A stretch of 64,000 bases of DNA. Origin: a bacterium. Its GTDB lineage: Archaea > Thermoplasmatota > E2 > JACPAO01 > JAHFTW01. Location of the stretch: assembly GCA_040390065.1 (NCBI GenBank), contig JAZJZE010000009.1, positions 506,930-570,929 on the forward strand. Direction: 5' to 3'. Positions 12,317 through 62,908 of this stretch are shown here, one piece after another. The notes beneath the pieces are model-generated. The model made no database searches. It saw only the letters and a list, made by a program, of their open reading frames with translations, and was not told the DNA's origin. Each line of letters begins with the position of its first letter. Positions within the stretch are counted from its first letter, which is position 1. The position numbers and the translations under genes were made by a program.

Positions 12317-12690
12317 CGGCCACGTCATCCTCCGACGGCGGCGCGGGCAACGAGGTGGCCGCGTGGCTGGGTGTGGGAGGCCATGGAGAACAGGAATCAA
12401 GTGGAGAGAAACGGAATGCGTTCTCGTTTTCCCGTGGTCTCCGGTTCTCCCAGGCCGTCTTTGCCTGAAAGGCCGCGAAGTCGCCGAAGAGTGGAAAGGT
12501 CGCTTTCCGCGTTTTTCGGTGGCTTCCAGCTCTTTCAGGCCCCCGGCGGCCCCAGCCATCGCTTCGCTCCGCTTGCCATGCCCTCGCACGCCCGCGCTGC
12601 GCCGCGGGCAGCTCGCCCCGACCGGGGGCTGCGTCGCCTCCCTGCCATTCCTTCAAGGCGTCGGCGCCGTCGGAGGAACGTGGGAATGGC
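12317..12690. repeat. Composite structured dispersed element, copy 1
   Basis: Module A hairpin 12317-12361, central hairpins 12379-12456 and 12463-12540, module C 12541-12690; A and C recur in the same order at 61542-61893. Confidence 0.85.
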
Positions 12691-12747
12691 GCGTCGGTCT
12701 TGACCCGCAGGTTGGCCGGTCTTCCGCGGCTTCCTGGATGTCCAGGC

Positions 12748-35172: not shown

Positions 35173-35481
35173 CGGGTTCGCGAGGCTCACCCGTCATGTC
35201 GTTCGCACACGGATGCCCACGCTGGGGCCTTCCCGGCCCCAGACCCCTGGGCGGAGACGGCGGCCGGTCGGCATCGCGCCACAACATCGCTGCGCCGCAT
35301 GCTGGCCGGCAAGCCGGCCAGCATACGTGACTGGCGAACCGTCGCTGCGCTCCGGTTCACCAGCGCTCGCTGAGGATGCTCGGCTGCTACCCTCCGGGTC
35401 CGCGTTGACAAGCCGGCCGCCGAGGCCAGCCGCGCAGGGAGGTCATCACGCGTTCTGTTCCATCTGTTTCATCTGTTGACC
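35170..35481. repeat. Cluster of REP-like palindromes between convergent genes
   Basis: tgacgggt/acccgtca; ggggcc/ggcccc+agacccc; perfect 12-bp stem atgctggccggc/gccggccagcat (35299-35324); ctggcgaaccg/cggttcaccag; 9-periodic arm tctgttcca-tctgtttca-tctgttgacc (35454-35481). Confidence 0.7.
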
Positions 35482-52014: not shown

Positions 52015-52450
52015 CTATACGTCGCTTGCGGCCGCGGCAGGCATGGCCGGCGCCGTCGCGGCGGTGGCGGGCACCACGGACAGGCCGTCGCCATCCTCGA
52101 CGCGCACCAGTCCGCTTTGCTCCGGCCGCCGGACGTGGTAATGCGCAGCGCCGTACGTGAGGCCGACCCGGGCTGCGATTTCGCCGAGCCTTGCGCCTCG
52201 AGGCCGTTTCATAACTGCCAGGGTGCCTGCGTCATTTTCCGGCCTTCGCAATCCCGTTGCGGGCGGCCGCCGGCGGGCCGGCAGCCCGCCAAGGCCGCCC
52301 GCGACGGGAGTGTGTGGCCGGAAAATGACCCGGAGGGCGCGCCGCTTTACGGCGGATGGCGTCGTCGGAATTGCCTCGGCGTGGCGGTGCCACGTGGTCG
52401 GCAACTCCTCCTAGCCCTCCTTGCAAACCGGCGCGCGCAGGCTTCCTGGA
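52015..52450 (-). pseudogene. Degraded winged-helix regulator remnant
   Basis: 'GARLGEIAARVGLTYGAAHYHVRRPEQSGLV' HTH fragment with a helix-breaking Pro and no coherent upstream frame. Confidence 0.4.
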
Positions 52451-52698: not shown

Positions 52699-53436
52699 AT
52701 GTTCAAGGCCAAGGTCAAAGTCGAAGTCCTCACCACCGTTCTCAATGCCGTGTCGACGTTGGTGGACGAGGCCAAGATCCAGTTGACGCCGGAAGGCCTG
52801 AACCTGAAGGCCGTCGACCCCGCCCACGTCGCCATGGTCGACCTCAGCCTTGGCAAGAAGGCCTTCGCCGAGTACAAGGCGACGGACATGGACATCGGCG
52901 TCGACCTCGACAAGCTGAAGGACATCCTCAAGCTCGCCGGCGGCCAGGACACCATCGACATCGAGTACAAGGAAGACGCGCACAAGCTGGTCTTCAAGAT
53001 CGGCCACGTCACGCGCCGCATGTCGCTCGTCGACACGGCCAACATCAACGACCCGAAAGTGCCAAACCTCAACCTGCCCAACCAAGTCACGGTCCTGGCC
53101 CGCGAACTGAAGAACGGCATCCGCGCCTCGGAGGCCGTCTCCGACCACATCGCCCTCGTGGCGCACGGCAAGTCGTTCGAGCTCCTCGCCGAAGGCGACA
53201 CGGACCAGGTTCACCTCAAGCTCGAGGGCGACGATATCATCAAGATCCAGGCGCCGGACAAGTCGCGCAGCCTCTTCTCGCTCGATTACTTCAGCAACAT
53301 GGCGAAGGTCGTCGGCGACGCAAGCGCCATCACGCTGCACCTCGGCTCCGACTACCCCGTCCGCATCGAGTTCGACATCGCGGACGGGGCGGGACACATC
53401 GTGTACCTTCTGGCGCCGCGTATCGAGAGCGAATAG
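52699..53436 (+). CDS. pcn: DNA polymerase sliding clamp PCNA
   Basis: 'AVDPAHVAMVDL', 'IGVDLDKL', 'SLFSLDY', 'YLLAPRIE'. Confidence 0.98.
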   Translation: MFKAKVKVEVLTTVLNAVSTLVDEAKIQLTPEGLNLKAVDPAHVAMVDLSLGKKAFAEYKATDMDIGVDLDKLKDILKLAGGQDTIDIEYKEDAHKLVFKIGHVTRRMSLVDTANINDPKVPNLNLPNQVTVLARELKNGIRASEAVSDHIALVAHGKSFELLAEGDTDQVHLKLEGDDIIKIQAPDKSRSLFSLDYFSNMAKVVGDASAITLHLGSDYPVRIEFDIADGAGHIVYLLAPRIESE

Positions 53437-53438
53437 GC

Positions 53439-53822
53439 ATGCGGGCCGCCGCGGGGCTCTGCGTCGTCGCCGCCCTGCTTGTCGCCGGTTGCTCGGGCGG
53501 CAGTTCGCCGACCCTGGACCGCACCTTGCCGGGCGCGGCCCACATTTCCGGCTCCGGGTTCTCAACGAATGTCCAGACGGACCATGTCCAGTGCGCCGCC
53601 CACGGGCACATGGATGTCCATACCAACGGTTTCGGCACCTTGACCGTGGATTTGCGCGACGCATCCGGTCGCTTGGTCTTCACGGTCACGACCGTAAATC
53701 AAGGCGAGACGACCCGTCACGAGGACGTCAACGGCACGGCCGGAGTCTGGACGCTGACGGTCGACCCGGGCGCGCCCCACTACCAGGGCGACTTCGACGT
53801 CAAGCTCGACTGCAAGGTCTAA
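53439..53822 (+). CDS. Small lipoprotein, tandem paralog A
   Basis: LVAGC lipobox; 'C...DASG...GTAGVW...GDFDVKLDC'. Confidence 0.75.
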   Translation: MRAAAGLCVVAALLVAGCSGGSSPTLDRTLPGAAHISGSGFSTNVQTDHVQCAAHGHMDVHTNGFGTLTVDLRDASGRLVFTVTTVNQGETTRHEDVNGTAGVWTLTVDPGAPHYQGDFDVKLDCKV

Positions 53823-53872
53823 GCGGCACGCCGGCCCCCTAGATTCATGAGGCCTCTCACGATGGCGAGGAC

Positions 53873-54283
53873 GTGCGCGCCCTGGCGACCCTGCTCGTGC
53901 TATTGTCCGTTGCCGCCTTCACGTCGGGCTGCGCCTCCCCACAACCCGAGAACCTCTCCGGCCACTACGCCTACATCGACTGGAACGAATCGACCCAGTC
54001 GTGCACCAACAACAATTGTGATTACGGCACGAACAACCGCGTCCTCACCTACAACGTGACCTGCGGACCCGACCCTATCCTCAGTTGGGACCTCAAGAAC
54101 TGGATCCACGGCTCCATGGTCGTGCGCGTCCTCGACCCGACCGGCGCGCAGGCGGACAAGCGGACGTTGTCCAGCAACAGCCACGGCTCCGCGCCCATGC
54201 ACGGCCCGGGAGGTGCGTGGACTCTGGAAGGCACGAGCCACGACGCCAACGGCAACTTGCAGGTCCGGCTGACCTGCGCGTAG
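53873..54283 (+). CDS. Small lipoprotein, tandem paralog B
   Basis: FTSGC lipobox; 'C...DPTG...GPGGAW...GNLQVRLTC'. Confidence 0.75.
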   Translation: MRALATLLVLLSVAAFTSGCASPQPENLSGHYAYIDWNESTQSCTNNNCDYGTNNRVLTYNVTCGPDPILSWDLKNWIHGSMVVRVLDPTGAQADKRTLSSNSHGSAPMHGPGGAWTLEGTSHDANGNLQVRLTCA

Positions 54284-54314
54284 GTTCAAGAGACCCTCTC
54301 ATGATGAGCGGGGC

Positions 54315-54692
54315 ATGCGTGTCGCGGTCGTCGCCATCGTCGTCCTCCTGGCCGGTTGCTCGGCGCCCCTCCGGCTGCGCATCGACGTCCATGACTCCTA
54401 CGGTGGCACGACGACGATCAACGGCGACGTCCGCTACAACCCGACGGGCCACCAGCAGGACTACACGGCCTCGTGTGGCGGCACCGGCCACCTCAAGGTC
54501 GGCCTGTCCGAGTACCATCTGGGCGGAGCCGCGTTCGTGGCCAAGGACGCCGGCGGCATCGTCCTCGCGGAGATTCACCTCAACCAGGTGGACTCGCAGG
54601 AGCGCGACATCTCCGGCGGAGCGGGGATGTGGCTGGTCCACGTGGGCCTGGACCGCTTCAACGGCGCCTTCGACTTGCAACTCTCCTGTTGA
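54315..54692 (+). CDS. Small lipoprotein, tandem paralog C
   Basis: LLAGC lipobox; 'C...DAGG...GGAGMW...GAFDLQLSC'. Confidence 0.75.
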   Translation: MRVAVVAIVVLLAGCSAPLRLRIDVHDSYGGTTTINGDVRYNPTGHQQDYTASCGGTGHLKVGLSEYHLGGAAFVAKDAGGIVLAEIHLNQVDSQERDISGGAGMWLVHVGLDRFNGAFDLQLSC

Positions 54693-54733: not shown

Positions 54734-55861
54734 GTGGCCGACCTGGTCCGCCTGGCATTCTACCCGTTCCTGCCGGAGGTGCGGGACGCGGTGCGCGAGG
54801 CCGGACCTGACCTGGATGCGGTGCTTCGTTCGCCCCTGTACCAGGGTGTGCGCAGCCGGGCGGTGCAGCGCGTCGAGGGCGCGCTCGGCGACGGCTTTGG
54901 CCCGGCTCAGGTCGTCGACGAACGGACCGGGCTCCTCGAACTCCTCTCCATCCCGGTCGCGCGCATGCTCATCGTCCTGCTCGGCGAGAAAGGCGTCGTG
55001 CCGCGCTACGCCGCCGCCGAAGCCCGCCTCGTGCATGACCGCATCGTCGCCGACCACGACGACGAAGCCGTCGTGCAGGCCGCCGCCGCCCTCGGCATCC
55101 CGGCCGAGGGAACAGACTCCGTATGGCGGATGCACTTCTCGGCCTACATCCGCCTGGCTCCCGTGCACTTGCCGCAATGGAAGCTGCTGCGGCGGCCCGT
55201 GCAGGCCGGCAACGTGTGGCTGGACCGCAGTGACATGGCGAGACTCATCGAGGAGGCCTTGAAGCGCCGCATCGCGGACGACCTCGATGCAGAGCGGGCC
55301 AAGCCGCTGCCGGAGGAGGTCAAGGCCGCCCTCGCCCCGTTGGTCGAGCGACTTGCTCCGCGGCTCGAGGAAGCGCGCGAAGCGTGGAGCCAAGGCGACT
55401 TCGGTCCCGTCAAGCCCGAGTTGTTCCCGCCGTGCATCAAGGAGATTTTCGAGTCCCTGAAGCGCAGCGAGAACGTGCCGCACCACGGCCGCTTCGCCTT
55501 CGCCACCTTCCTGCACACCGTTGGCTGGAACTCCGAGGCCATCCTGGATTACCTTGCATCGACGCCGAACTTCGACCGCGAGAAGTCACGCTACCAGATC
55601 GAGCACGTGACGGGCGGCAAATCCGTGCAGGCGTACACGCCACCCGGCTGCGGCACGATGCAGACGAACGGCGTCTGCCCCCTGGCCAAGCGTGACGGCT
55701 TGTGCTTCAAGATCAAGCATCCGCTCAGCTACTACCGGGCGCAACTCAAGTTCAGGGCGCGTGACGAGGAGAAGGCGGCGGCGATTCTGGCTGCGACGAC
55801 CCCGTCACAACCGCCGATACCGCCGATGACGCCGAACGCCGCCTCGGAGGTTAGGCCGTGA
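54734..55861 (+). CDS. priL: DNA primase large subunit
   Basis: 'YPFL', 'FPPCI', 'VPHHGRF', 'YQIEH', Fe-S Cys 'PGCGTM...GVC...C..IKHPLSYY'. Confidence 0.95.
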   Translation: MADLVRLAFYPFLPEVRDAVREAGPDLDAVLRSPLYQGVRSRAVQRVEGALGDGFGPAQVVDERTGLLELLSIPVARMLIVLLGEKGVVPRYAAAEARLVHDRIVADHDDEAVVQAAAALGIPAEGTDSVWRMHFSAYIRLAPVHLPQWKLLRRPVQAGNVWLDRSDMARLIEEALKRRIADDLDAERAKPLPEEVKAALAPLVERLAPRLEEAREAWSQGDFGPVKPELFPPCIKEIFESLKRSENVPHHGRFAFATFLHTVGWNSEAILDYLASTPNFDREKSRYQIEHVTGGKSVQAYTPPGCGTMQTNGVCPLAKRDGLCFKIKHPLSYYRAQLKFRARDEEKAAAILAATTPSQPPIPPMTPNAASEVRP

Positions 55862-55874
55862 CGCCGACGGAACG

Positions 55875-55944
55875 AACCACTGAAACCACTGAACGCACTG
55901 AAACGCCGGACGGTAGTTCAGTGGGTTCAGTGAGCTCAGTGGTT
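55875..55944. repeat. 9-nt-periodic hairpin
   Basis: aaccactgaaaccactgaacgcactgaa / ttcagtgggttcagtgagctcagtggtt (24/28 paired); a degenerate second copy at ~55988-56046. Confidence 0.8.
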
Positions 55945-56089
55945 AGGGCGGCGGTGCCGCGTGGTTGACGCCCCCCGAATCGCCCAGAACACTGAGCGCG
56001 TTGAACGTGTCGTGGGTAGCCCAGTGAAGTCCGTGCGTTCGGTGGCTCGGCCGGGGTCCAGACGGAGCACCGACAGTGGAAAGGGAGGG

Positions 56090-56473
56090 TTGAGCGTTGT
56101 CTCGAGGCCGTATGTTCCGCGGGCGACGTTCATGTTGCGGCTGGCCTCCGTACTACTTGCGCTCGTCAGCGTGACTCAGATATTGGTCTCCCTTGCGCGC
56201 CTTTTCTCCCTTCGCCCTTGGGCGATTGGCTTCTTCATCTCTGGCCTCCTGGCCGGATGCGCGGCGTGGGGCGCCTGGAACAGCAAGGCTTGGGCGCGCT
56301 GGGTGAGCTACGCGAGCCTGGCCGTGGCGGCCGCGGCGACGGCAATTGGTAGCTACGGACAGTCATGGGCCTGGCTGGCCTGGTGGTGGTGGGCCGGGTC
56401 GTACCTCTGGCCTGAATTGGCCTTGCATGCCGCGATGATCCGTCGCCCCTTGGCCGAGGTGCCGCGTGCCTGA
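56090..56473 (+). CDS. Orphan 4-TM membrane protein inserted between priL and priS
   Basis: GGGAGG SD before TTG 56090; hydrophobic, Trp-rich; overlaps the priS start. Confidence 0.6.
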   Translation: MSVVSRPYVPRATFMLRLASVLLALVSVTQILVSLARLFSLRPWAIGFFISGLLAGCAAWGAWNSKAWARWVSYASLAVAAAATAIGSYGQSWAWLAWWWWAGSYLWPELALHAAMIRRPLAEVPRA

Positions 56474-57842
56474 CGCATCCGATTCGTCGGTGAAATCGGT
56501 GGTTCCGCCCGAGGCGAAACCAACCGCGCCCGAGCAACCTCCAGCTAAACCTCCGCAGCCCACCACGTTCCCCCCCGCCGTCGCGAAGACGATTGACTGG
56601 CTGCAAGGCCAATACGCCGATTGGTACCGCGACAACCCGCCACCGATGCCGGACCGCTTCACGCGCCGCGAATTCGGTTTCATCCTGTGGCCAGACAAGC
56701 CGGGGCCGCCGCCATTTGTCCGGCACCGCGCGTACGAGAACGCCGATCGCTTGCATTGGTACTTGCAGAAGCAGGGTCCGCACTCGGCGTACTACTCGAC
56801 GGCGTACTACCGCCGGCCGGGCGAGATGAAGATGCTCGACAAGCAGTGGCTCGGCGCGGAACTCATCTTCGACTTGGACGCCGACCACCTCGTCGAAGCC
56901 GAGAAGGCGAAGGCGGAAGGCCACGAGATGCCGCTGGCCGAGCAGCTCGCACTCGTCAAGACGCAGTTCAAGCGCCTTCTTGACGAATTCCTCTTCGGCG
57001 ACTTCGGCCTCGGAGAAGACGACGTGTGGATCACGTTCAGTGGCGGCCGCGGCTACCACGCCCACGTCATCGAGGAGCGCCTCATGCAGTTGGATTCCAA
57101 GGCGCGGCGCGAGATCGTCGACTACATCACCGGCAAGGTGCCGACGGAGAAGGGCACCGAAAAGCCGGACCTGTCGCTGTTCATCACGGAGACCACCGTT
57201 GCCGCGGATTCGTTTGCCGGACGCACCAAGAAGCTCACTCAGGAGCGCATGGCGCCGGCGGGGACGCCCGGATGGCCCGGTCGCCTTACGCGCACGCTGG
57301 CCCAGACGTTGCGGACGCACGTGCTCGATGCCGAAAAGAAGGACGCCAAGCGGTGGCTCACCAGCATGGACGGCATCGGCGAAGGCGGGGCCACGAAGTT
57401 CATCGAGCGCTTCGATGAGAAGTCCCTGGCCCGCATCGAGCAAGGGTTCGTCGACCAGGGCCCAGTCATCCGTCGCATCTGTTACCACGTCCTGCAGCAG
57501 GCCACGATCCCGATGGCCAAAGGCGAGACGGACGAGCCCGTCACGGCGGACACGAAGCGCCTCATCCGCCTGCCGGGAAGCCTGCATGGCAAATCGGGGC
57601 TCAAGGTCGTGACCTTGCGCCGCGACGACTTGGACGCCTTCGAGCCGCTGCGCGACGCGGTCGCGTTCAGCATGGAGCCGACGCGCATCGTGCCCCGCAA
57701 CGACGCCGAGATGACGCTGGCAGGGGAACGCGTCGTCGTGAAGAAGGGCGAAGCCGTCGACGTGCCGAAAGCGCACGCCGTCTTCTGGCTGGCGCGCCAA
57801 GGCGGGACGATTTTCCAGGAGCAGCCGTCCACCAACCGTTAA
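56466..57842 (+). CDS. priS: DNA primase small (catalytic) subunit
   Basis: 'REFGF', 'YYSTAYY', 'GAELIFDLDADH', 'FSGGRGYH', 'DEPVTADTKRLIRLPGSLHGK'. Confidence 0.96.
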   Translation: MPDASDSSVKSVVPPEAKPTAPEQPPAKPPQPTTFPPAVAKTIDWLQGQYADWYRDNPPPMPDRFTRREFGFILWPDKPGPPPFVRHRAYENADRLHWYLQKQGPHSAYYSTAYYRRPGEMKMLDKQWLGAELIFDLDADHLVEAEKAKAEGHEMPLAEQLALVKTQFKRLLDEFLFGDFGLGEDDVWITFSGGRGYHAHVIEERLMQLDSKARREIVDYITGKVPTEKGTEKPDLSLFITETTVAADSFAGRTKKLTQERMAPAGTPGWPGRLTRTLAQTLRTHVLDAEKKDAKRWLTSMDGIGEGGATKFIERFDEKSLARIEQGFVDQGPVIRRICYHVLQQATIPMAKGETDEPVTADTKRLIRLPGSLHGKSGLKVVTLRRDDLDAFEPLRDAVAFSMEPTRIVPRNDAEMTLAGERVVVKKGEAVDVPKAHAVFWLARQGGTIFQEQPSTNR

Positions 57843-57866
57843 ACGCCCGGTGCCGCTCAAAGGGTC

Positions 57867-58691
57867 GTGGCGGAAGAGGGACGCGATGCACCCCGGCAGG
57901 GCACGCACACCTCCGCCCGACCGGCCGCAACCGACGCGGAGAAGGAGGCGGTCTCCTACGAGATGCTGCAGGACCTCCTGCGCTCCGAGCGGCGCAGCAA
58001 CAAACTCATGCCGGTGACGGCGCGCTTCTGGTTCCTCGTGCGCGAATTCCTGGAGGCGGTCACGAACGAGTTCCGGGCCGAGCAGGCGAAGGACCCCTTC
58101 AGCCGCAAGGTCATGCTTCTGACGGACGAAGTCAAGAACGCTCGTCACGCCGCCGAGTCGCTTTGGGCTTTGCGTGAACGCAAGCTCGCAATGTTGGCCC
58201 TGGCTGCGACGAAGGACCGCAAGCGCCCGGAAGGTGTCACGCCCGACGAGGCCGAACTGTACGATGGCTTCCTGCAGGCGCTTGGAACCGCCCGCACGCG
58301 GTTGTTCGACGGCCTCCTGCCGCCGCCCACGCTCCAGCCGCCGCCCGTCCCGGTCCCGAGTCCCGCACCCGGCGCGACGACGGCGCCGCCCGTGCAGATG
58401 CCGATCCAGGAGCCGCCGCGGCCTGACGCGAAGGCCCCAGTCATGTCGGTCCCGGTGGCACCGCCTCCTCCCGCGACGGCAGCCGGCGGCCCGGGTGTCC
58501 ACGTCGTCCCCCACGACACCACCCAAACCGTGCAGATGGTCACCATCCGGGCCCTCGGCGACATTCCGCCTTTCGTCGGCCCCGACATGCAGACGTACCT
58601 GCTCAAGGCCGGCGACCTCGCAACGGTCCCGCCGAGCATCGCGAACCTGCTGGTGAGGCGAAACAAGGCGGCCATCGTCAACATGGGCTGA
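57867..58691 (+). CDS. GINS-family replication protein (GINS15/51-type)
   Basis: Helical A domain 'RERKL', Pro-rich linker, B domain 'IRALGDIPPFVGPDMQTYLLKAGDLATVP..A..LV'; expected position after priS. Confidence 0.85.
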   Translation: MAEEGRDAPRQGTHTSARPAATDAEKEAVSYEMLQDLLRSERRSNKLMPVTARFWFLVREFLEAVTNEFRAEQAKDPFSRKVMLLTDEVKNARHAAESLWALRERKLAMLALAATKDRKRPEGVTPDEAELYDGFLQALGTARTRLFDGLLPPPTLQPPPVPVPSPAPGATTAPPVQMPIQEPPRPDAKAPVMSVPVAPPPPATAAGGPGVHVVPHDTTQTVQMVTIRALGDIPPFVGPDMQTYLLKAGDLATVPPSIANLLVRRNKAAIVNMG

Positions 58692-58704
58692 ATCCGCCCG
58701 CTCG

Positions 58705-58794
58705 GGTCAACAGATGCTCGAGATGACGACGGCTTTTCCGTCACGACTTCGCCTCCGTCGTCGGCATCGGTTTCATCGGTTCAATCTGTTGACC
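58705..58794. repeat. 9-nt-periodic hairpin
   Basis: Perfect outer IR ggtcaacagat/atctgttgacc; right arm catcggttt-catcggttc-aatctgttg. Confidence 0.78.
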
Positions 58795-58858
58795 AGGAGT
58801 CGTCTCGGGGGCGACGCGACATCACCTCCAAATAGGCCCGCGAAACTCGCCGAGAACG

Positions 58859-59206
58859 ATGCCCGACCGCACCCCCTTCCGCAAGCAGCCGTTCTCGGAT
58901 GAGGAAGCGGAGAAACTGTACCACAACTCGCACGACCTTCGCGAGATGTACACGCGGGAGAACACGGAACGCCGCCGCGCCGGGGCGCACACGCTTCGCC
59001 GCTACCTGACGACGGCGCAGGATAAGCTTCTCACCGCCCACATGACGAAGATCCGCGACGAGTACGAGACAGCCAACAACGACGACGTCGTCGTGGTGTT
59101 CGTGCAGAAGGCCATCGCCGAGGGAAAGACAGCCGAGTTTGCTCCGCAGCTCGTGGAGTATGCGAAGAAGGCCGTCGTGCCGAAGCGGACGACGCCGGTA
59201 TACTAG
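58859..59206 (+). CDS. Hypothetical protein inserted between GINS and rpl44e
   Basis: 115-aa ORF with coding-like codon usage. Confidence 0.65.
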   Translation: MPDRTPFRKQPFSDEEAEKLYHNSHDLREMYTRENTERRRAGAHTLRRYLTTAQDKLLTAHMTKIRDEYETANNDDVVVVFVQKAIAEGKTAEFAPQLVEYAKKAVVPKRTTPVY

Positions 59207-59337
59207 TCGGCGTTCAGGCTAAATACCACCTCCGTGTCGCCAACCTTGCCTTCCGTAGATTTCCCCGCCACCGCATCCCTTGGGAGCGGACGTCGGGACA
59301 GTCTTCGCCGTTGGAAGGCCGGCGAAGGTGTGATACC

Positions 59338-59634
59338 ATGAAACTCCCCCGCACCGTGAAGCGGTACTGCCCTTCGGCCAAGTGCCAGAAGCACCAGGAC
59401 CACGACGTCGAACGCGTCAAGAAACGCCGCGCCAGTGAACTCAGCTGGGGTCAGAGGCGGTTCCGCAAGGTCACCTCCGGTTACACGGGTTTCCCCCGTC
59501 CGAAGCCCGAGGGCCGCGAGAAGCCGACGAAGCGCATCTTCCTGAAGTACGTCTGCAAGGTGTGCAAGAAGGCCCACCAGCCGGCCGCCTTCCGCGCCAA
59601 GAAGTTCGAACTCATCGAGGTGAAGGGCAAATGA
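59338..59634 (+). CDS. rpl44e: 50S ribosomal protein L44e (eL42)
   Basis: 'YCP..KCQKH..H.V', 'WGQRRF..GY.GFPRP', 'KPTKR...C..C.KAH'. Confidence 0.97.
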
Positions 59635-59807
59635 CCGCAATCCGTGCTCAATTCGTGAAAGTGAAGTGCGGCGACTGCGGCAACGAGCAGATCGCCTTCA
59701 ACCGCGCGGCCACCAAGGTCAACTGCCTCGTCTGCGGCGCAACCCTTGCGACGCCGACCGGCGGCGAGGCCAAGTTCAAGGCGGAAATCACGCACACGTT
59801 CGATTAG
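59631..59807 (+). CDS. rps27e: 30S ribosomal protein S27e (eS27)
   Basis: '[32 protein letters not shown]'. Confidence 0.97.
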
Positions 59808-59822
59808 TCTTGCGTCCAACGG

Positions 59823-59986
59823 TGTCCAGGTTTGGCCCTTAGCGCAAGCTCGGCCAGCATTGGAATCCACAGAATCCTGCGTCGAAGCGCTGTCAAGGTT
59901 TGGCCCCCGCGCCGAGCTCGCCCAGCATTGGAATCCACCGAATCCACAGAAAGTAGCGGGCGGTTTCGGTGGATTCAGTGGATTCC
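59823..59986. repeat. Degenerate 55-bp tandem duplication (period 68) ending in a 9-nt-periodic hairpin
   Basis: tgtc.aggtttggccc...ccagcattggaatccac.gaatcc at 59823 and 59891; IR ggaatccaccgaatccacagaaa / tttcggtggattcagtggattcc (21/23 paired). Confidence 0.8.
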
Positions 59987-60004
59987 TGTTTCAGTGGGGC
60001 CGCG

Positions 60005-60472
60005 TTAAGCCAGCAATAGGACGGCGGCCGTGAGGCCAATCCCAGCGACAAAGGTCCACCAAAGGAGGCTCTCCCGATGCCCCGCGCGGCGCCATTCCTC
60101 GGACGGCACGCCCTCCTTCATCGCTTGCATCAGCCGGAAAGAACTGGCCAAACCCATGGCGATGAACGAGCCGCACAGAGCCCAGCCTGCGGCGACGGCT
60201 ATCCATGCGGCCCAGGCGGCACCCTCGGGCTTGACCCACACCGCTACGACGACGAGGCCAACGAGCAGGAAAATCGGGTAAAGCCCCCAGAACCAGACGC
60301 GGTCGCGACGCCACAATGCTTCGACGCGAGCGTCGTTGTCGGCGCGGAAGTCGACACGCCATACACCGAAGCGTTCGCGTTCGAGGCGGATCTGGCGGCC
60401 ATGGGCCTTGGCCGAGATGAGGATCAGCGCGAGAGTGGCGACGGTTTCGGCGGCCAGGGCCCAATCGCGCAC
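60005..60472 (-). CDS. Orphan membrane protein inserted antisense between rps27e and eIF2-alpha
   Basis: About 4 hydrophobic segments; fits exactly in the intergenic gap. Confidence 0.65.
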   Translation of the reverse strand: MRDWALAAETVATLALILISAKAHGRQIRLERERFGVWRVDFRADNDARVEALWRRDRVWFWGLYPIFLLVGLVVVAVWVKPEGAAWAAWIAVAAGWALCGSFIAMGLASSFRLMQAMKEGVPSEEWRRAGHRESLLWWTFVAGIGLTAAVLLLA

Positions 60473-60530
60473 AACCCTGGAGAAAACCGGTCCCCTAAAG
60501 CCTGATATCAGAGACGCTTCTCCCCAAACC

Positions 60531-61334
60531 GTGGCTAAACTCAACCCCTTCCCTGAGGAGGGCGAACTCGTCGTCGGTACCGTGCGCGAGGTGCAGAACT
60601 TCGGCGCCTTCGTGACGCTCGAGGAGTACAAGGGCAAGGAGGGCTTCTGCCACATCCGCGAAGTCGCTCCGGGTTGGGTGAAGCGCATCCGCGACTACGT
60701 GCGCGAGAAGCAGCGCGTCGTGTGCAAGGTCATGGGTGTCGACGCCAAGAAGGGCCATATCGACCTCAGCATCAAGGCCGTCAACGACCACCAGAAGCGC
60801 GAGACCATCCAGGCGTGGAAGAACGAGCAGAAGGCGGACAAGTTCCTCGAGATCATGGCGGAGCGCGAGAAGACCACGGTCGAGGCGCTCATGGCCACGT
60901 TCGGCCGCGACGTCATCGCCAAGTTCGGGACACTTTACCAGGCCTTCGTCGAATCCGCCGAACTCGGCGCAGAGGCGCTGGAGCAAGAGGGCCTGAAGGG
61001 TCCGTGGGTCGCGTCGTTCGTGGCGTTCGCGCAGGAGAACATCCAGGCGCAGTTCGTCGACATCGCCGGCTACGTGGACATCCAGAGCCCCCTGCCCGAC
61101 GGCGTGAAGCACGTGTCCAAGGCGCTCAAGCAGGCGGAGAAGTCCGAGTTCGAGGACGTCACCATCGAGGTCGCCTACATGGGGGCGCCGCACTACCGCG
61201 TCACCGTCCGAGCGCCCGATTTCAAGATTGCCGAGACGGAATTGGAGAAGGCGGCGGAGCGCGCCGTCGACGCCATCAAGAAGGCGGGCGGGTCCGGCTC
61301 CTTCCACCGCGAACTCGAGGTCAAGAAGGCCTAG
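60531..61334 (+). CDS. eif2a: Translation initiation factor 2 subunit alpha
   Basis: 'PEEGELVVGTV', 'GAFVTLEEY', 'KGHIDLSIK', 'YMGAPHYR'. Confidence 0.97.
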   Translation: MAKLNPFPEEGELVVGTVREVQNFGAFVTLEEYKGKEGFCHIREVAPGWVKRIRDYVREKQRVVCKVMGVDAKKGHIDLSIKAVNDHQKRETIQAWKNEQKADKFLEIMAEREKTTVEALMATFGRDVIAKFGTLYQAFVESAELGAEALEQEGLKGPWVASFVAFAQENIQAQFVDIAGYVDIQSPLPDGVKHVSKALKQAEKSEFEDVTIEVAYMGAPHYRVTVRAPDFKIAETELEKAAERAVDAIKKAGGSGSFHRELEVKKA

Positions 61335-61335
61335 G

Positions 61336-61512
61336 ATGACGAACGCCCTCATGCGGTATTGCGGCACCTGCTCCGAGTACACGCTGAAGGAGGCCTGCCC
61401 GCGCTGCGGCGGCAAGACGGCGCAGAAGACGCCGGCCAAGTTCAGTCCCGAGGACCATTACGGCGAGTACCGACGCAAGCTCAAGAAATTGGATGCGTCC
61501 GAGAAGGCGTAG
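61336..61512 (+). CDS. nop10: H/ACA RNP protein Nop10
   Basis: 'C..C.EYTLKEACPRCGG.T...PAKFSPEDHYGEYRR'. Confidence 0.95.
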   Translation: MTNALMRYCGTCSEYTLKEACPRCGGKTAQKTPAKFSPEDHYGEYRRKLKKLDASEKA

Positions 61513-61541
61513 GGCATCGGTCCATCGAAACCAACCAACTT

Positions 61542-61893
61542 GCGGCCACGTCAACCTCCGACGGCGGCGACGCGCACGAGGTGGCCGCTTGCTTGAGTTT
61601 GGGCGGCCTGGAAAAACAGTGAACCCCATGAAACGGCAGGCGACAGGACATCGGTTTCCCTGGGTTCGGGTGGTGCACTATTTTCCGCGGCCTCCCACAC
61701 TCAGCGACGCCCCGCAAGCAAGATGAATCCCAGCCCCCCCGGCGGCCCCCGCGCGCTCGCTACGCATCGCGCACTGGCCTCGCCCTCGCACGCCCGCGCT
61801 GCGCTGCGGGCTGCTCGCCCCGACCGGGGGCCCGCTTCGCCTTTCCTCCATTCCCTCAAGGCGTCGGCGCCGTCGGAGGACGACGGGAATGGC
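61542..61893. repeat. Composite structured dispersed element, copy 2
   Basis: Module A 61542-61588, central hairpin ~61610-61686, module C 61737-61893; homologous to 12317-12690. Confidence 0.85.
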
Positions 61894-61914
61894 TCGGTGG
61901 CTTGGACAAGCAGG

Positions 61915-61943
61915 AATCAGTCCAATCCGTGCAATCCGTGGTT
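61915..61943. repeat. 9-nt-periodic half-site
   Basis: aatcagtcc-aatccgtgc-aatccgtgg-tt, 14 nt from the desaturase stop. Confidence 0.65.
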
Positions 61944-61957
61944 CGCGTGGGCGACGG

Positions 61958-62908
61958 CTAGTGCGCCATGCGTGCCAACTTTTCCGCCTTCGTTGGCTGG
62001 TGCACGTGCGTGATGAGGTGCGTCCATGCGAGGAGCCGCACGAGCCATGCGCCGGTGTCGACTTGCCACCATTTCATGCCGATGTAGGCGGCGTTGGGGA
62101 AGGCGTGGTGGTTGTTGTGCCAGCCTTCGCCCCAGCCGAAGATGGCGACGATGGGGTTGTTGGCGCCGCGGTCGTTCGTCTTGAACGGGCGGCGGCCCGA
62201 CATGTGGCCGATGGAGTTGACGCTCCACGTCGTGTGGTGCATGAGGCCGACGCGGATGAGGCCGCCCCAGACGAAGCAGTCGAAGGCGCCGGCAAGCGTT
62301 CCGTAGGCGAGGTAGCCGATGATGGCGGGCAGCACAAGAGAGAATGTGGTCCAGAAGACCCAGGTACGTGTGAAGAACGCGACCACCTTGTCCTGCATGA
62401 GCTTCTCGTAGGCGAGTCCGCCGTAGACCATGCGGTCCTTGAGCATCCATCCCATGTGTGCGTGCCAGAAGCCTTCCAGTGGGCTGTGGGGGTCGCCGGG
62501 CCGGTCGGCCTTGGCGTGGTGGCGCAGGTGCGTTGCCGCCCAACCGGCTGGCGGGCCTTCGAGGGCCATCGTGCCGGCCATGAGGAGTCCGATCTTCGCG
62601 GGGGTCTTGGCGGTAAAGGCGCGGTGGGTGAGCATGCGGTGGAAGCCGACGCTGACGCCGAGGCCGGTCAGGAGCCAGCCGCCGATGAGGAGGCCAATCT
62701 CGAGCCAGCCGACGCCATGGCCCCAGAGGCGCCACCCGGCGTAGCCGAGGGCCAGCAGGGGGAGGAAGACGATGACCAGGATGAGGAGCTTGCCCCACCA
62801 CGGGTCGTGGCCGAAGGGGAACGGGTCCTGGCCCTTGTGTTCGCCTTCGTGGGCCGTCTGGTCCCACTCCTGTTGTTCGGGGTCTTGGGCGTGCGCTTGG
62901 TTCGACAT
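61958..62908 (-). CDS. Acyl-CoA (delta-9/Ole1-like) fatty acid desaturase
   Basis: Three His boxes 'GFHRMLTHRAF', 'HLRHH..AD..GDPHSP', 'GEGWHNNHHAFP'; GGAGG SD favours ATG 62908. Confidence 0.93.
   Translation of the reverse strand: MSNQAHAQDPEQQEWDQTAHEGEHKGQDPFPFGHDPWWGKLLILVIVFLPLLALGYAGWRLWGHGVGWLEIGLLIGGWLLTGLGVSVGFHRMLTHRAFTAKTPAKIGLLMAGTMALEGPPAGWAATHLRHHAKADRPGDPHSPLEGFWHAHMGWMLKDRMVYGGLAYEKLMQDKVVAFFTRTWVFWTTFSLVLPAIIGYLAYGTLAGAFDCFVWGGLIRVGLMHHTTWSVNSIGHMSGRRPFKTNDRGANNPIVAIFGWGEGWHNNHHAFPNAAYIGMKWWQVDTGAWLVRLLAWTHLITHVHQPTKAEKLARMAH

Follow-up and report, generated by a model that had tools for sequence, protein, structure and literature searches.

Why are conserved replication and translation genes of an archaeon accompanied by short palindromes whose unit sequence differs from site to site, but whose nine-nucleotide period and geometry persist? 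This question is raised by the window analyzed here, a stretch of 64,000 nucleotides (G+C content 67%) from an archaeal genome assembly of 2.68 Mb in 50 contigs that is 89% complete (source genome, G000). The preliminary description of the window regarded these hairpins as structure-defined sites, similar to integron attC, by which single genes had been captured into the cluster. The present analysis favors another explanation, to which a probability of roughly 65% is assigned: the hairpins represent gene-less copies, and the solitary periodic arrays decayed half-copies, of a palindromic element system resembling the repetitive extragenic palindromic (REP) doublets forming hairpins (REPINs) and their REP-associated tyrosine transposases (RAYTs), with a PD-(D/E)XK nuclease as the associated enzyme. 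Full-length members of the system carry one small nuclease gene of the GxxExxY family between the same arms. The explanation builds on the architecture of the elements, the linkage of gene and arms, their shared termini, the co-distribution of both components, the excess of gene-less copies, and the fixed polarity of the arms.

A search of the source genome with the PDDEXK_3 profile (PF13366) returned three genes, each enclosed by inverted periodic arms and each located outside the window (Table 1). Both the mention in the preliminary description of similar repeats beside bacterial GxxExxY genes and its suggestion to search for a nuclease gene bordered by such arms were borne out by these loci. 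The frame split of the gene on contig C5 points to a pseudogene with a frameshift or to an error of the assembly. The nuclease, approximately 125 amino acids in size, reached scores of 121.7 and 121.1 bits for PF13366 (cut-off 22) and of 131.3 and 128.1 bits for TIGR04256 (cut-off 35), and PF13366 was matched by all 27 aligned members. In this alignment, the residues G18, E21, Y24, E71, K73, Q85, and Y89 were invariant, and D61 was retained in at least 90% of the sequences; conservation of the catalytic D...ExK, QxxxY, and GxxExxY motifs supports the classification as a predicted PD-(D/E)XK nuclease. PADLOC returned no match for two of the GxxExxY proteins, and the sequence search of the PDB with the nuclease yielded only two matches (E-value 0.62, retinol-binding protein), which were taken as chance. 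In the table of the survey by Steczkiewicz et al. (2012, PMC3424549), the function of PDDEXK_3 is listed as Unknown. The literature on GxxExxY, PDDEXK_3, and TIGR04256 that was covered, with supplements and the text of the TIGR04256 curators lying outside this coverage, held nothing on flanking repeats, and the pairing of nuclease and palindrome in archaea and bacteria is apparently undescribed so far.

Genes and hairpins are connected by their ends, since the three gene-bearing elements have the same outer termini as other copies, among them the gene-less hairpins at 58705, 59930, and 61601. The termini GGTCAACAGATG...CTGTTGACC of the hairpin at 58705 recur in the gene-bearing element C17:28698-29146, those of the hairpin at 59930 in the element C3:83930-84375, and the first 24 nucleotides of the hairpin at 61601 are identical to both arms around the frame-split gene (C5:19007-19563). 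Likewise, in genome G012, the spacer between GINS and the 58859 gene harbors a gene-less CGCAGATG hairpin, the termini of which (TTTTCCGCAGATG) are those of the genome's own gene-bearing element. Flanking inverted arms with scores of at least 15 were detected at 22 out of 29 GxxExxY loci fetched from the genus, mostly featuring period-9 self-match values of 0.6 to 0.8, as compared to 2 out of 2115 genes of the source genome in the same test. The unit sequence varies between paralogous gene-bearing elements within the genus. In genome G007, the only GxxExxY gene adjoins a hairpin unit of about 75 nucleotides with CACAGATTC arms and a loop of about 40 nucleotides, which is present in three tandem repeats (L118 1-300).

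The genome-wide scan for periodic inverted arms proposed in the preliminary description (arms of at least 16 nucleotides, at least 80% complementarity, and loops of at most 40 nucleotides) revealed a strong excess of period 9. In total, 31 of the 71 inverted repeats showed a period-9 self-match of at least 0.7, compared to between 0 and 4 for periods 5-8 and 10-12. Tandem arrays were likewise dominated by period 9 (55 non-coding and 68 coding arrays), as compared to periods 8 (6 and 9), 12 (2 and 13), and 10 (4 and 1), the coding status being derived from a rough, purpose-made gene caller. The pattern (MACNGANNN)x2+MACNGA was matched 72 times, and its reversed control not once. The unit types distinguished in the source genome were CACTGAA, AACAGATG/AACCGATG, GGAATCCAC, CAACCGA, and a GAA-rich type, most of which combine the common core (C/A)AC-N-GA with three variable bases. 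The order of the arms was the same in all 12 strict hairpins, with (C/A)AC-N-GA first and its complement 3' of it, a fixed polarity that is not required under purely structural selection; 23 of the 28 solo arrays outside genes have the orientation expected of decayed halves of these hairpins. Arms paired at 324 of 329 core positions and at 97 of 145 variable linker positions, counts that cannot tell structure from sequence selection because the hairpins had been preselected for at least 80% pairing. Altogether, the source genome encodes three nuclease genes and contains approximately 28 hairpins and 31 solo arrays.

The hairpins noticed in the window beforehand are real, although the observation was confirmed only in part: two of the three hairpins placed beside genes of the cluster proved robust, and one was found to be decayed. 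The robust hairpin at 55875 begins 14 nucleotides past the priL stop codon and consists of arms of 28 nucleotides (55875-55902 and 55917-55944, 86% complementary) around a 14-nucleotide loop, each arm comprising about three 9-nucleotide units according to Tandem Repeats Finder (TRF). Its RNA fold achieved a z-score of -7.0, equaled by 0 of 200 shuffled sequences, and its DNA fold a z-score of -6.6; about ten similar copies exist in the source genome. The second robust hairpin, at 59930, lies 18 nucleotides past the stop codon of the minus-strand 60005 gene and features arms of 23 nucleotides (59930-59952 and 59964-59986, 91% complementary) with fold z-scores of -4.6 on the plus and -6.0 on the minus strand. 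A similar loop occurs in two more copies (C3:18242 and C9:252030), and the left arm is included in the tandemly duplicated unit at 59811-59945. The decayed hairpin at 58705 retains only an 11-bp outer stem and a short inner stem (z-score -1.5, 18 of 200 shuffles equal), and its right arm produced BLAST matches to many copies of the AACAGATG/AACCGATG family. Among the related arms proposed for other parts of the window, the one at 12463-12540 is a strong hairpin (z-score -6.2), whereas 61915-61940 and 35454-35477 represent solo arrays that have no inverted partner and fold no better than shuffled sequences.

Many arrays begin 10 to 30 nucleotides past a stop codon, a position also expected for intrinsic terminators, which the preliminary description had offered as the alternative to capture sites. 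The hairpins are not followed by a T-run and are therefore not canonical terminators; a terminator consensus scan of positions 55700-62100 returned one site (60545-60560) and none at a hairpin, and a search of the entire window against Rfam at the gathering threshold gave 0 matches. The invariable arm order, the conserved cores, the period of 9, and the inability of the solo arrays to fold argue equally against chance palindromes, so that generic terminators or chance are hardly credible as an explanation.

Table 1. Location of the gene-bearing elements, hairpins, arrays, and cluster genes; positions without contig label refer to the window
Feature	Position	Strand	Basis or remark
GxxExxY gene	C17:28754-29089		arms AACAGATG
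GxxExxY gene	C3:83972-84304		arms GGAATCCAC
GxxExxY gene (L027)	C5:19085-19418		arms GGCCTGGAAAAACAGTGAACC; split over two frames
Hairpin, four 9-nt units per arm, NNNNNGAAG type	12463..12540	none	between TruD and RNA polymerase subunit L
Solo AACAGATG-type array	35451..35477	-	17 nt past OMP (orotidine monophosphate) decarboxylase stop
In-frame 9-nt array, ACCGCCGAT type	55809..55836	+	variable C-terminal tail of PriL
Gene-less hairpin, CACTGAA type	55875..55944	none	arm pairing, TRF, folds
Solo arm, TCNGTG polarity, GATTCGTCGGTGAAATCGGTGGTTCC	56480..56505	none	read from sequence
Decayed hairpin, AACAGATG/AACCGATG type	58705..58794	none	GINS-58859 spacer
68-nt unit, tandem duplication, 2.0 copies	59811..59945	+	84% matches, score 189
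Gene-less hairpin, GGAATCCAC (CAC-N-GAA) type	59930..59986	none	arm pairing, folds
Imperfect hairpin, GGCCTGGAAAAACAGTGAACC type	61601..61696	none	inside mosaic repeat of ~390 nt; DNA fold z -1.6
Solo 9-nt array	61914..61941	-	16 nt past desaturase stop; sense strand of gene reads AACCACGGATTGCACGGATTGGACTGATTC
PCNA	52699-53436		Pfam
PriL	54734-55861		Pfam
PriS	56490-57842		Pfam
GINS51	57867-58691		Pfam
L44e	59338-59634		Pfam
S27e	59631-59807		Pfam
aIF2-alpha	60531-61334		Pfam
Nop10	61336-61512		Pfam

Two of the copies listed in Table 1 extend into primase genes. Alignments of PriL obtained by tblastn stop at differing residues in different relatives, and the in-frame array is located in this variable tail. 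The solo arm at the start of priS shares sequence with the GTG start candidates and with the N-terminal coding region, which is not conserved; in genome G004, the priS start carries the same arm, there forming the right-hand side of a CACCGA-type hairpin (L013 4131-4165). The only in-frame start candidates preceding the conserved part of PriS are the GTGs of TCGGTG units, and priS starts with ATG in relatives devoid of the arm. Judging from these sequences, PriS seems to have recruited its start codon and N-terminus from a repeat arm.

The gene order pcn-priL-priS-GINS-rpl44e-rps27e-eIF2a-nop10 given in the preliminary description was reproduced by Pfam, and the genes interrupting it were compared with 30 relatives, namely, 12 genomes of the same genus and 18 from other genera. 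Contrary to their designation as single orphan genes, only one of the three genes, the open reading frame (ORF) at 56090, was found to have no relatives. The 58859 gene follows GINS in 8 out of 12 syntenic loci of relatives, and homologues of the 60005 gene were identified in 9 of the 12 genomes of the genus as well as in 2 belonging to another family. The 56090 ORF was present at 0 of 12 syntenic loci, with one weak match (E-value 1.4e-4) among the 30 relatives; it lies among the arms, and its coding statistics are marginal (G+C content at third codon positions, GC3, of 0.79 vs. a genome mean of 0.87). Core genes, on the other hand, are adjoined by arrays in the window (TruD, RNA polymerase subunit L, OMP decarboxylase, PriL/PriS, and a fatty-acid desaturase), and arrays flank aIF2-beta on another contig. 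Tandem, divergent, and convergent spacers accounted for 35, 11, and 10 among 60 array loci, which is roughly like the background (1484, 321, and 322). Moreover, the priL-priS spacer still holds 9-nucleotide-periodic hairpins where it contains no gene, namely, in genomes G012 (CACGAA) and G005 (GCAGATT); no periodic hairpin was found in this spacer in two relatives. Hairpins thus occur beside core genes as well as at gene-free sites, the very combination that the preliminary description had named as speaking against capture.

Recombination sites similar to attC that take up single foreign genes are therefore a highly improbable explanation, since, in addition, neither of the two genes with flanking inverted repeats among the 2115 mentioned above has periodic ones, the nuclease is the only gene family regularly enclosed by the arms, and cassette arrays were not seen. 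A residue of the capture idea nevertheless survives, as unrelated orphan ORFs lie among arms of the priL-priS spacer in two species. One of these is the 56090 ORF; the other is an orphan ORF of 183 amino acids located between inverted GCAGATT arms in genome G004 (L013 3445-3996), the only gene other than the nuclease that was observed within a loop. Together with the short-loop GCAGATT hairpin of genome G005 at the same site, it constitutes a candidate pair of empty and filled sites, albeit only across species. The ORF of genome G004 has a G+C content of 0.60 and a foreign-like GC3 of 0.73, and it matched neither Pfam nor PADLOC nor any protein of the 30 relatives. It was also considered as a GxxExxY relative and rejected, because hhalign against the GxxExxY alignment gave a probability of 0.4%. 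In the PCNA-priL spacer (53439-54692), three small ORFs without Pfam match show weak and patchy similarity in relatives, and the content of this spacer varies across the genus.

The array pattern was detected in the source genome and in all 12 same-genus genomes (2 to 124 matches), as opposed to 0 to 1 matches in the 18 other relatives. PF13366 members were found in each of these 13 genomes, as opposed to 1 of the 18 other relatives, so that all genomes of the genus (13 out of 13) combine nuclease genes with arrays. Genome G013, which encodes no nuclease, has a period-9 array 5' of PCNA that was examined as a counter-example and dismissed, as it represents a single match that is absent from four sister genera.

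These distribution data bear on the main rival explanation, according to which the hairpins are elements kept by the host, acting as RNA 3' stabilizers, processing signals, or protein-binding arrays, and GxxExxY genes insert into their loops, making the hairpins targets and not offspring. The position of many arrays shortly after stop codons would agree with such a role, as would the nested hairpins described below, which show that loops receive insertions, and host-level roles of this kind are reported for REP elements in the part of PMC3733652 considered here. Furthermore, the hairpin following priL has an orthologue 3' of priL in genome G004, indicating that copies persist through speciation. 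However, arrays and nuclease genes are both missing in 17 of the 18 relatives outside the genus, whereas a signal owned by the host would be expected to extend beyond one genus. Unit sequences also differ between species and between paralogous elements, and 11 of the 60 array loci are situated in divergent spacers. Host-kept elements are accordingly considered unlikely, though more plausible than capture sites.

To evaluate the association beyond the genus, 40 testable GxxExxY loci, mostly bacterial and from many phyla, were chosen by protein similarity only. Inverted flanking arms with a z-score of at least 4 were recorded in 33 of them; the best period was 9 in 17 of these 33 loci and 10 in most others. 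Plasmid-borne bacterial homologues possessed phased arms in 5 to 7 out of 8 cases, exemplified by a plasmid gene of Bacteroides finegoldii with three CACAGAGGA units on each side in inverted order. In four bacterial genomes, cognate three-unit arrays outnumbered the nuclease genes (3 genes and 24 arrays, 5 and 9, 6 and 60, and, in a genome from the Blastocatellia, 5 and 143), while the reversed-pattern controls yielded 0 to 1 matches. Several bacterial GxxExxY genes reside in gaps of 30 to 60 nucleotides between housekeeping genes of one operon, such as fabD-fabG (L064, Sphingomonas plasmid), radA and its neighbor, and ade and its neighbor (L059 and L062).

For the array-richest genome (G034), 6 out of 7 fetched long-loop hairpins enclosed, in their loop, a further periodic hairpin with units of a different type; the nesting consists of an ACAGGAT-type hairpin in the loop of a CACGAAG-type hairpin (L132-L137). 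The protein tree united 25 of the 26 genus sequences in one clade, and the repeat period was specific to each protein clade. A near-identical protein together with its arms was encountered in metagenome-assembled genomes assigned to different phyla (L072 and L074). The archaeal proteins have their closest relatives in bacteria (50-57% identity), and the GC3 of the nuclease genes is below that of the genome, both of which fit acquisition by transfer.

Taken as a REPIN/RAYT-like system, the elements could operate as follows. The nuclease would recognize the phased cores on duplex or extruded-hairpin DNA, where a period of 9 to 10 bp may present one core per helical turn, as in iterated transposase or initiator sites. 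It would maintain or spread its own element along with the gene-less copies, as RAYTs are thought to do for REPINs. Copies would become established between genes, also within the PCNA-primase-GINS-ribosomal cluster, and would be retained there through speciation. The copies in the window would then be passengers and not markers of captured genes, yet some appear to have been absorbed into the tail of PriL and the start of PriS.

Several points weigh against this explanation. We infer from sequence comparison that the nuclease acts on the arms, that copies move, and that the gene-less hairpins are non-autonomous derivatives. Neither a target-site duplication nor a clean pair of empty and filled sites was found, and comparison of three DNA contig sets with positions 55700-62100 returned only cross-matches to other copies and to relatives, with no presence/absence variant. 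The gene-less copies are not near-identical, which is as compatible with long residence and slippage as with transposition, and a PD-(D/E)XK nuclease alone is not known to perform transposition. Arms were undetected at 7 of the 29 genus loci and at 7 of the 40 sampled loci. For the CACTGAA and CAACCGA types, the 89%-complete assembly contains no gene-bearing copy with exact units, and their provisional assignment to the genes on C3 and C17 follows core similarity only. As the genomes are kin, the co-distribution within the genus amounts to about one phylogenetic event, and the co-variation of period and protein clade does not show specificity because gene and arms are physically linked. As to the boundaries of the elements, the outer flanks are partly complementary and not direct repeats (6.0/10 in genome G034 vs. 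2.4 in the control; 5.1 in the source genome vs. 3.1), which reads as element termini reaching 3 to 7 nucleotides beyond the arrays.

A more far-reaching proposal, which we put forward tentatively and hold to be possible but far from established, is that GxxExxY nucleases define a widespread and undescribed class of mobile palindromes in Bacteria and Archaea. In this proposal, the enzyme would read phased CAC-N-GA-like cores and act at the center of the palindrome, and the loops would be insertion points for the nuclease gene, for nested hairpins, and occasionally for foreign DNA. If so, the orphan ORFs of the priL-priS spacer would represent loop cargo, giving the capture-site idea a minor basis. 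Should the nuclease-palindrome system itself be borne out, a large protein family of 'function unknown' would obtain its first functional context. Beside REPIN/RAYT, a second and mechanistically different partnership of a single-copy enzyme with a population of short palindromes would be recognized, one crossing the divide between bacteria and archaea. It would also account for small GxxExxY ORFs wedged between housekeeping genes (e.g., fabD/fabG), a common annotation puzzle, and for the periodic repeats by which assemblies are interrupted and the spacers of conserved operons enlarged. One small protein and synthetic oligonucleotides would suffice for a direct test of the nuclease-palindrome system.

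Two further repeat families were observed in the window. A palindromic element of about 75 nucleotides (52240-52330, core at 52269) with a conserved loop and the conserved flanks CTTCGCAATCC ... GGAGTGTGTGGC is present in 12 genome copies, several of them at contig ends; its outer stem varies by paired, compensatory changes, it is unrelated to the 9-nucleotide hairpins, and it has no Rfam match. A mosaic repeat of about 390 nucleotides, composed of three modules with inverted ends CCTCCGACGGCGGCG ... CGCCGTCGGAGG, extends over positions 61513-61957 and, as a second copy that includes the hairpin at 12463, over positions 12317-12711. In addition, a near-full copy was found at C9:574864-575291 (76%) along with over 30 partial ones, and 9-nucleotide arrays often adjoin or lie within this repeat.

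Comparison with known systems places the elements nearest to REPIN/RAYT. As in the REPIN/RAYT literature considered here (Bertels & Rainey 2011, PMC3116915 and PMC3337134; Di Nocera et al. 2013, PMC3733652), palindromic repeats are dispersed in tens of copies over intergenic spacers, one or few cognate genes lie between inverted copies of these repeats, and the repeat sequence is specific for species and paralogue and persists for long in a lineage. In the source genome as well as in the four bacterial genomes, the repeats far outnumber the cognate gene that they flank. The enzymes differ, however, as RAYT is a Y1 HUH transposase and the enzyme here a predicted PD-(D/E)XK nuclease; no match to the Y1 transposase profile (PF01797) was obtained in the source genome, which is 89% complete, compared to matches in 6 of 14 control genomes. 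The arms consist of 2 to 4 phased units of 9 or 10 nucleotides, whereas REPs are described in these sources as single stems of 8-20 bp with a GTAG or CGTC tag. CGTC-tagged REPs had been considered because the hairpins end in GTTCGTC, and were set aside since their stems measure 8-9 bp and their loops 4-5 nucleotides in the part of Di Nocera et al. (2013, PMC3733652) consulted. Unlike REPIN/RAYT, the nuclease system is present in an archaeon as well as in bacteria.

Miniature inverted-repeat transposable elements share with the hairpins the small size, the non-coding nature, the inverted ends, the intergenic location, and a gene-bearing parent with the same termini, but no target-site duplication was seen here and the parent is devoid of a DDE transposase. 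Integron attC sites are likewise imperfect palindromes of varying sequence and persistent geometry; the sites studied here, in contrast, are neighbored by core genes, have sequence-defined cores, and enclose a nuclease gene, and neither cassette arrays nor a tie of each site to one captured ORF were found. Intervening sequences of 23S rRNA, which carry an ORF of the four-helix-bundle 'IVS protein' family, are inserted into helices of the rRNA and excised from the transcript. They resemble the gene-bearing elements in harboring a small selfish ORF in the loop of an inserted hairpin, but the sites here are intergenic DNA. Foldback transposons are eukaryotic, kilobase-sized elements with a transposase of the Mutator-like element type, the terminal inverted repeats of which are built of short tandem repeats; some copies possess a coding loop and many do not. 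Periodic inverted arms and the coexistence of coding and non-coding copies are shared with the system described here, the arms of which measure 18-36 nucleotides and the loop gene of which encodes a nuclease. The closest analogue would thus be twofold, the logic of the system resembling REPIN/RAYT and its anatomy a eukaryotic foldback transposon.

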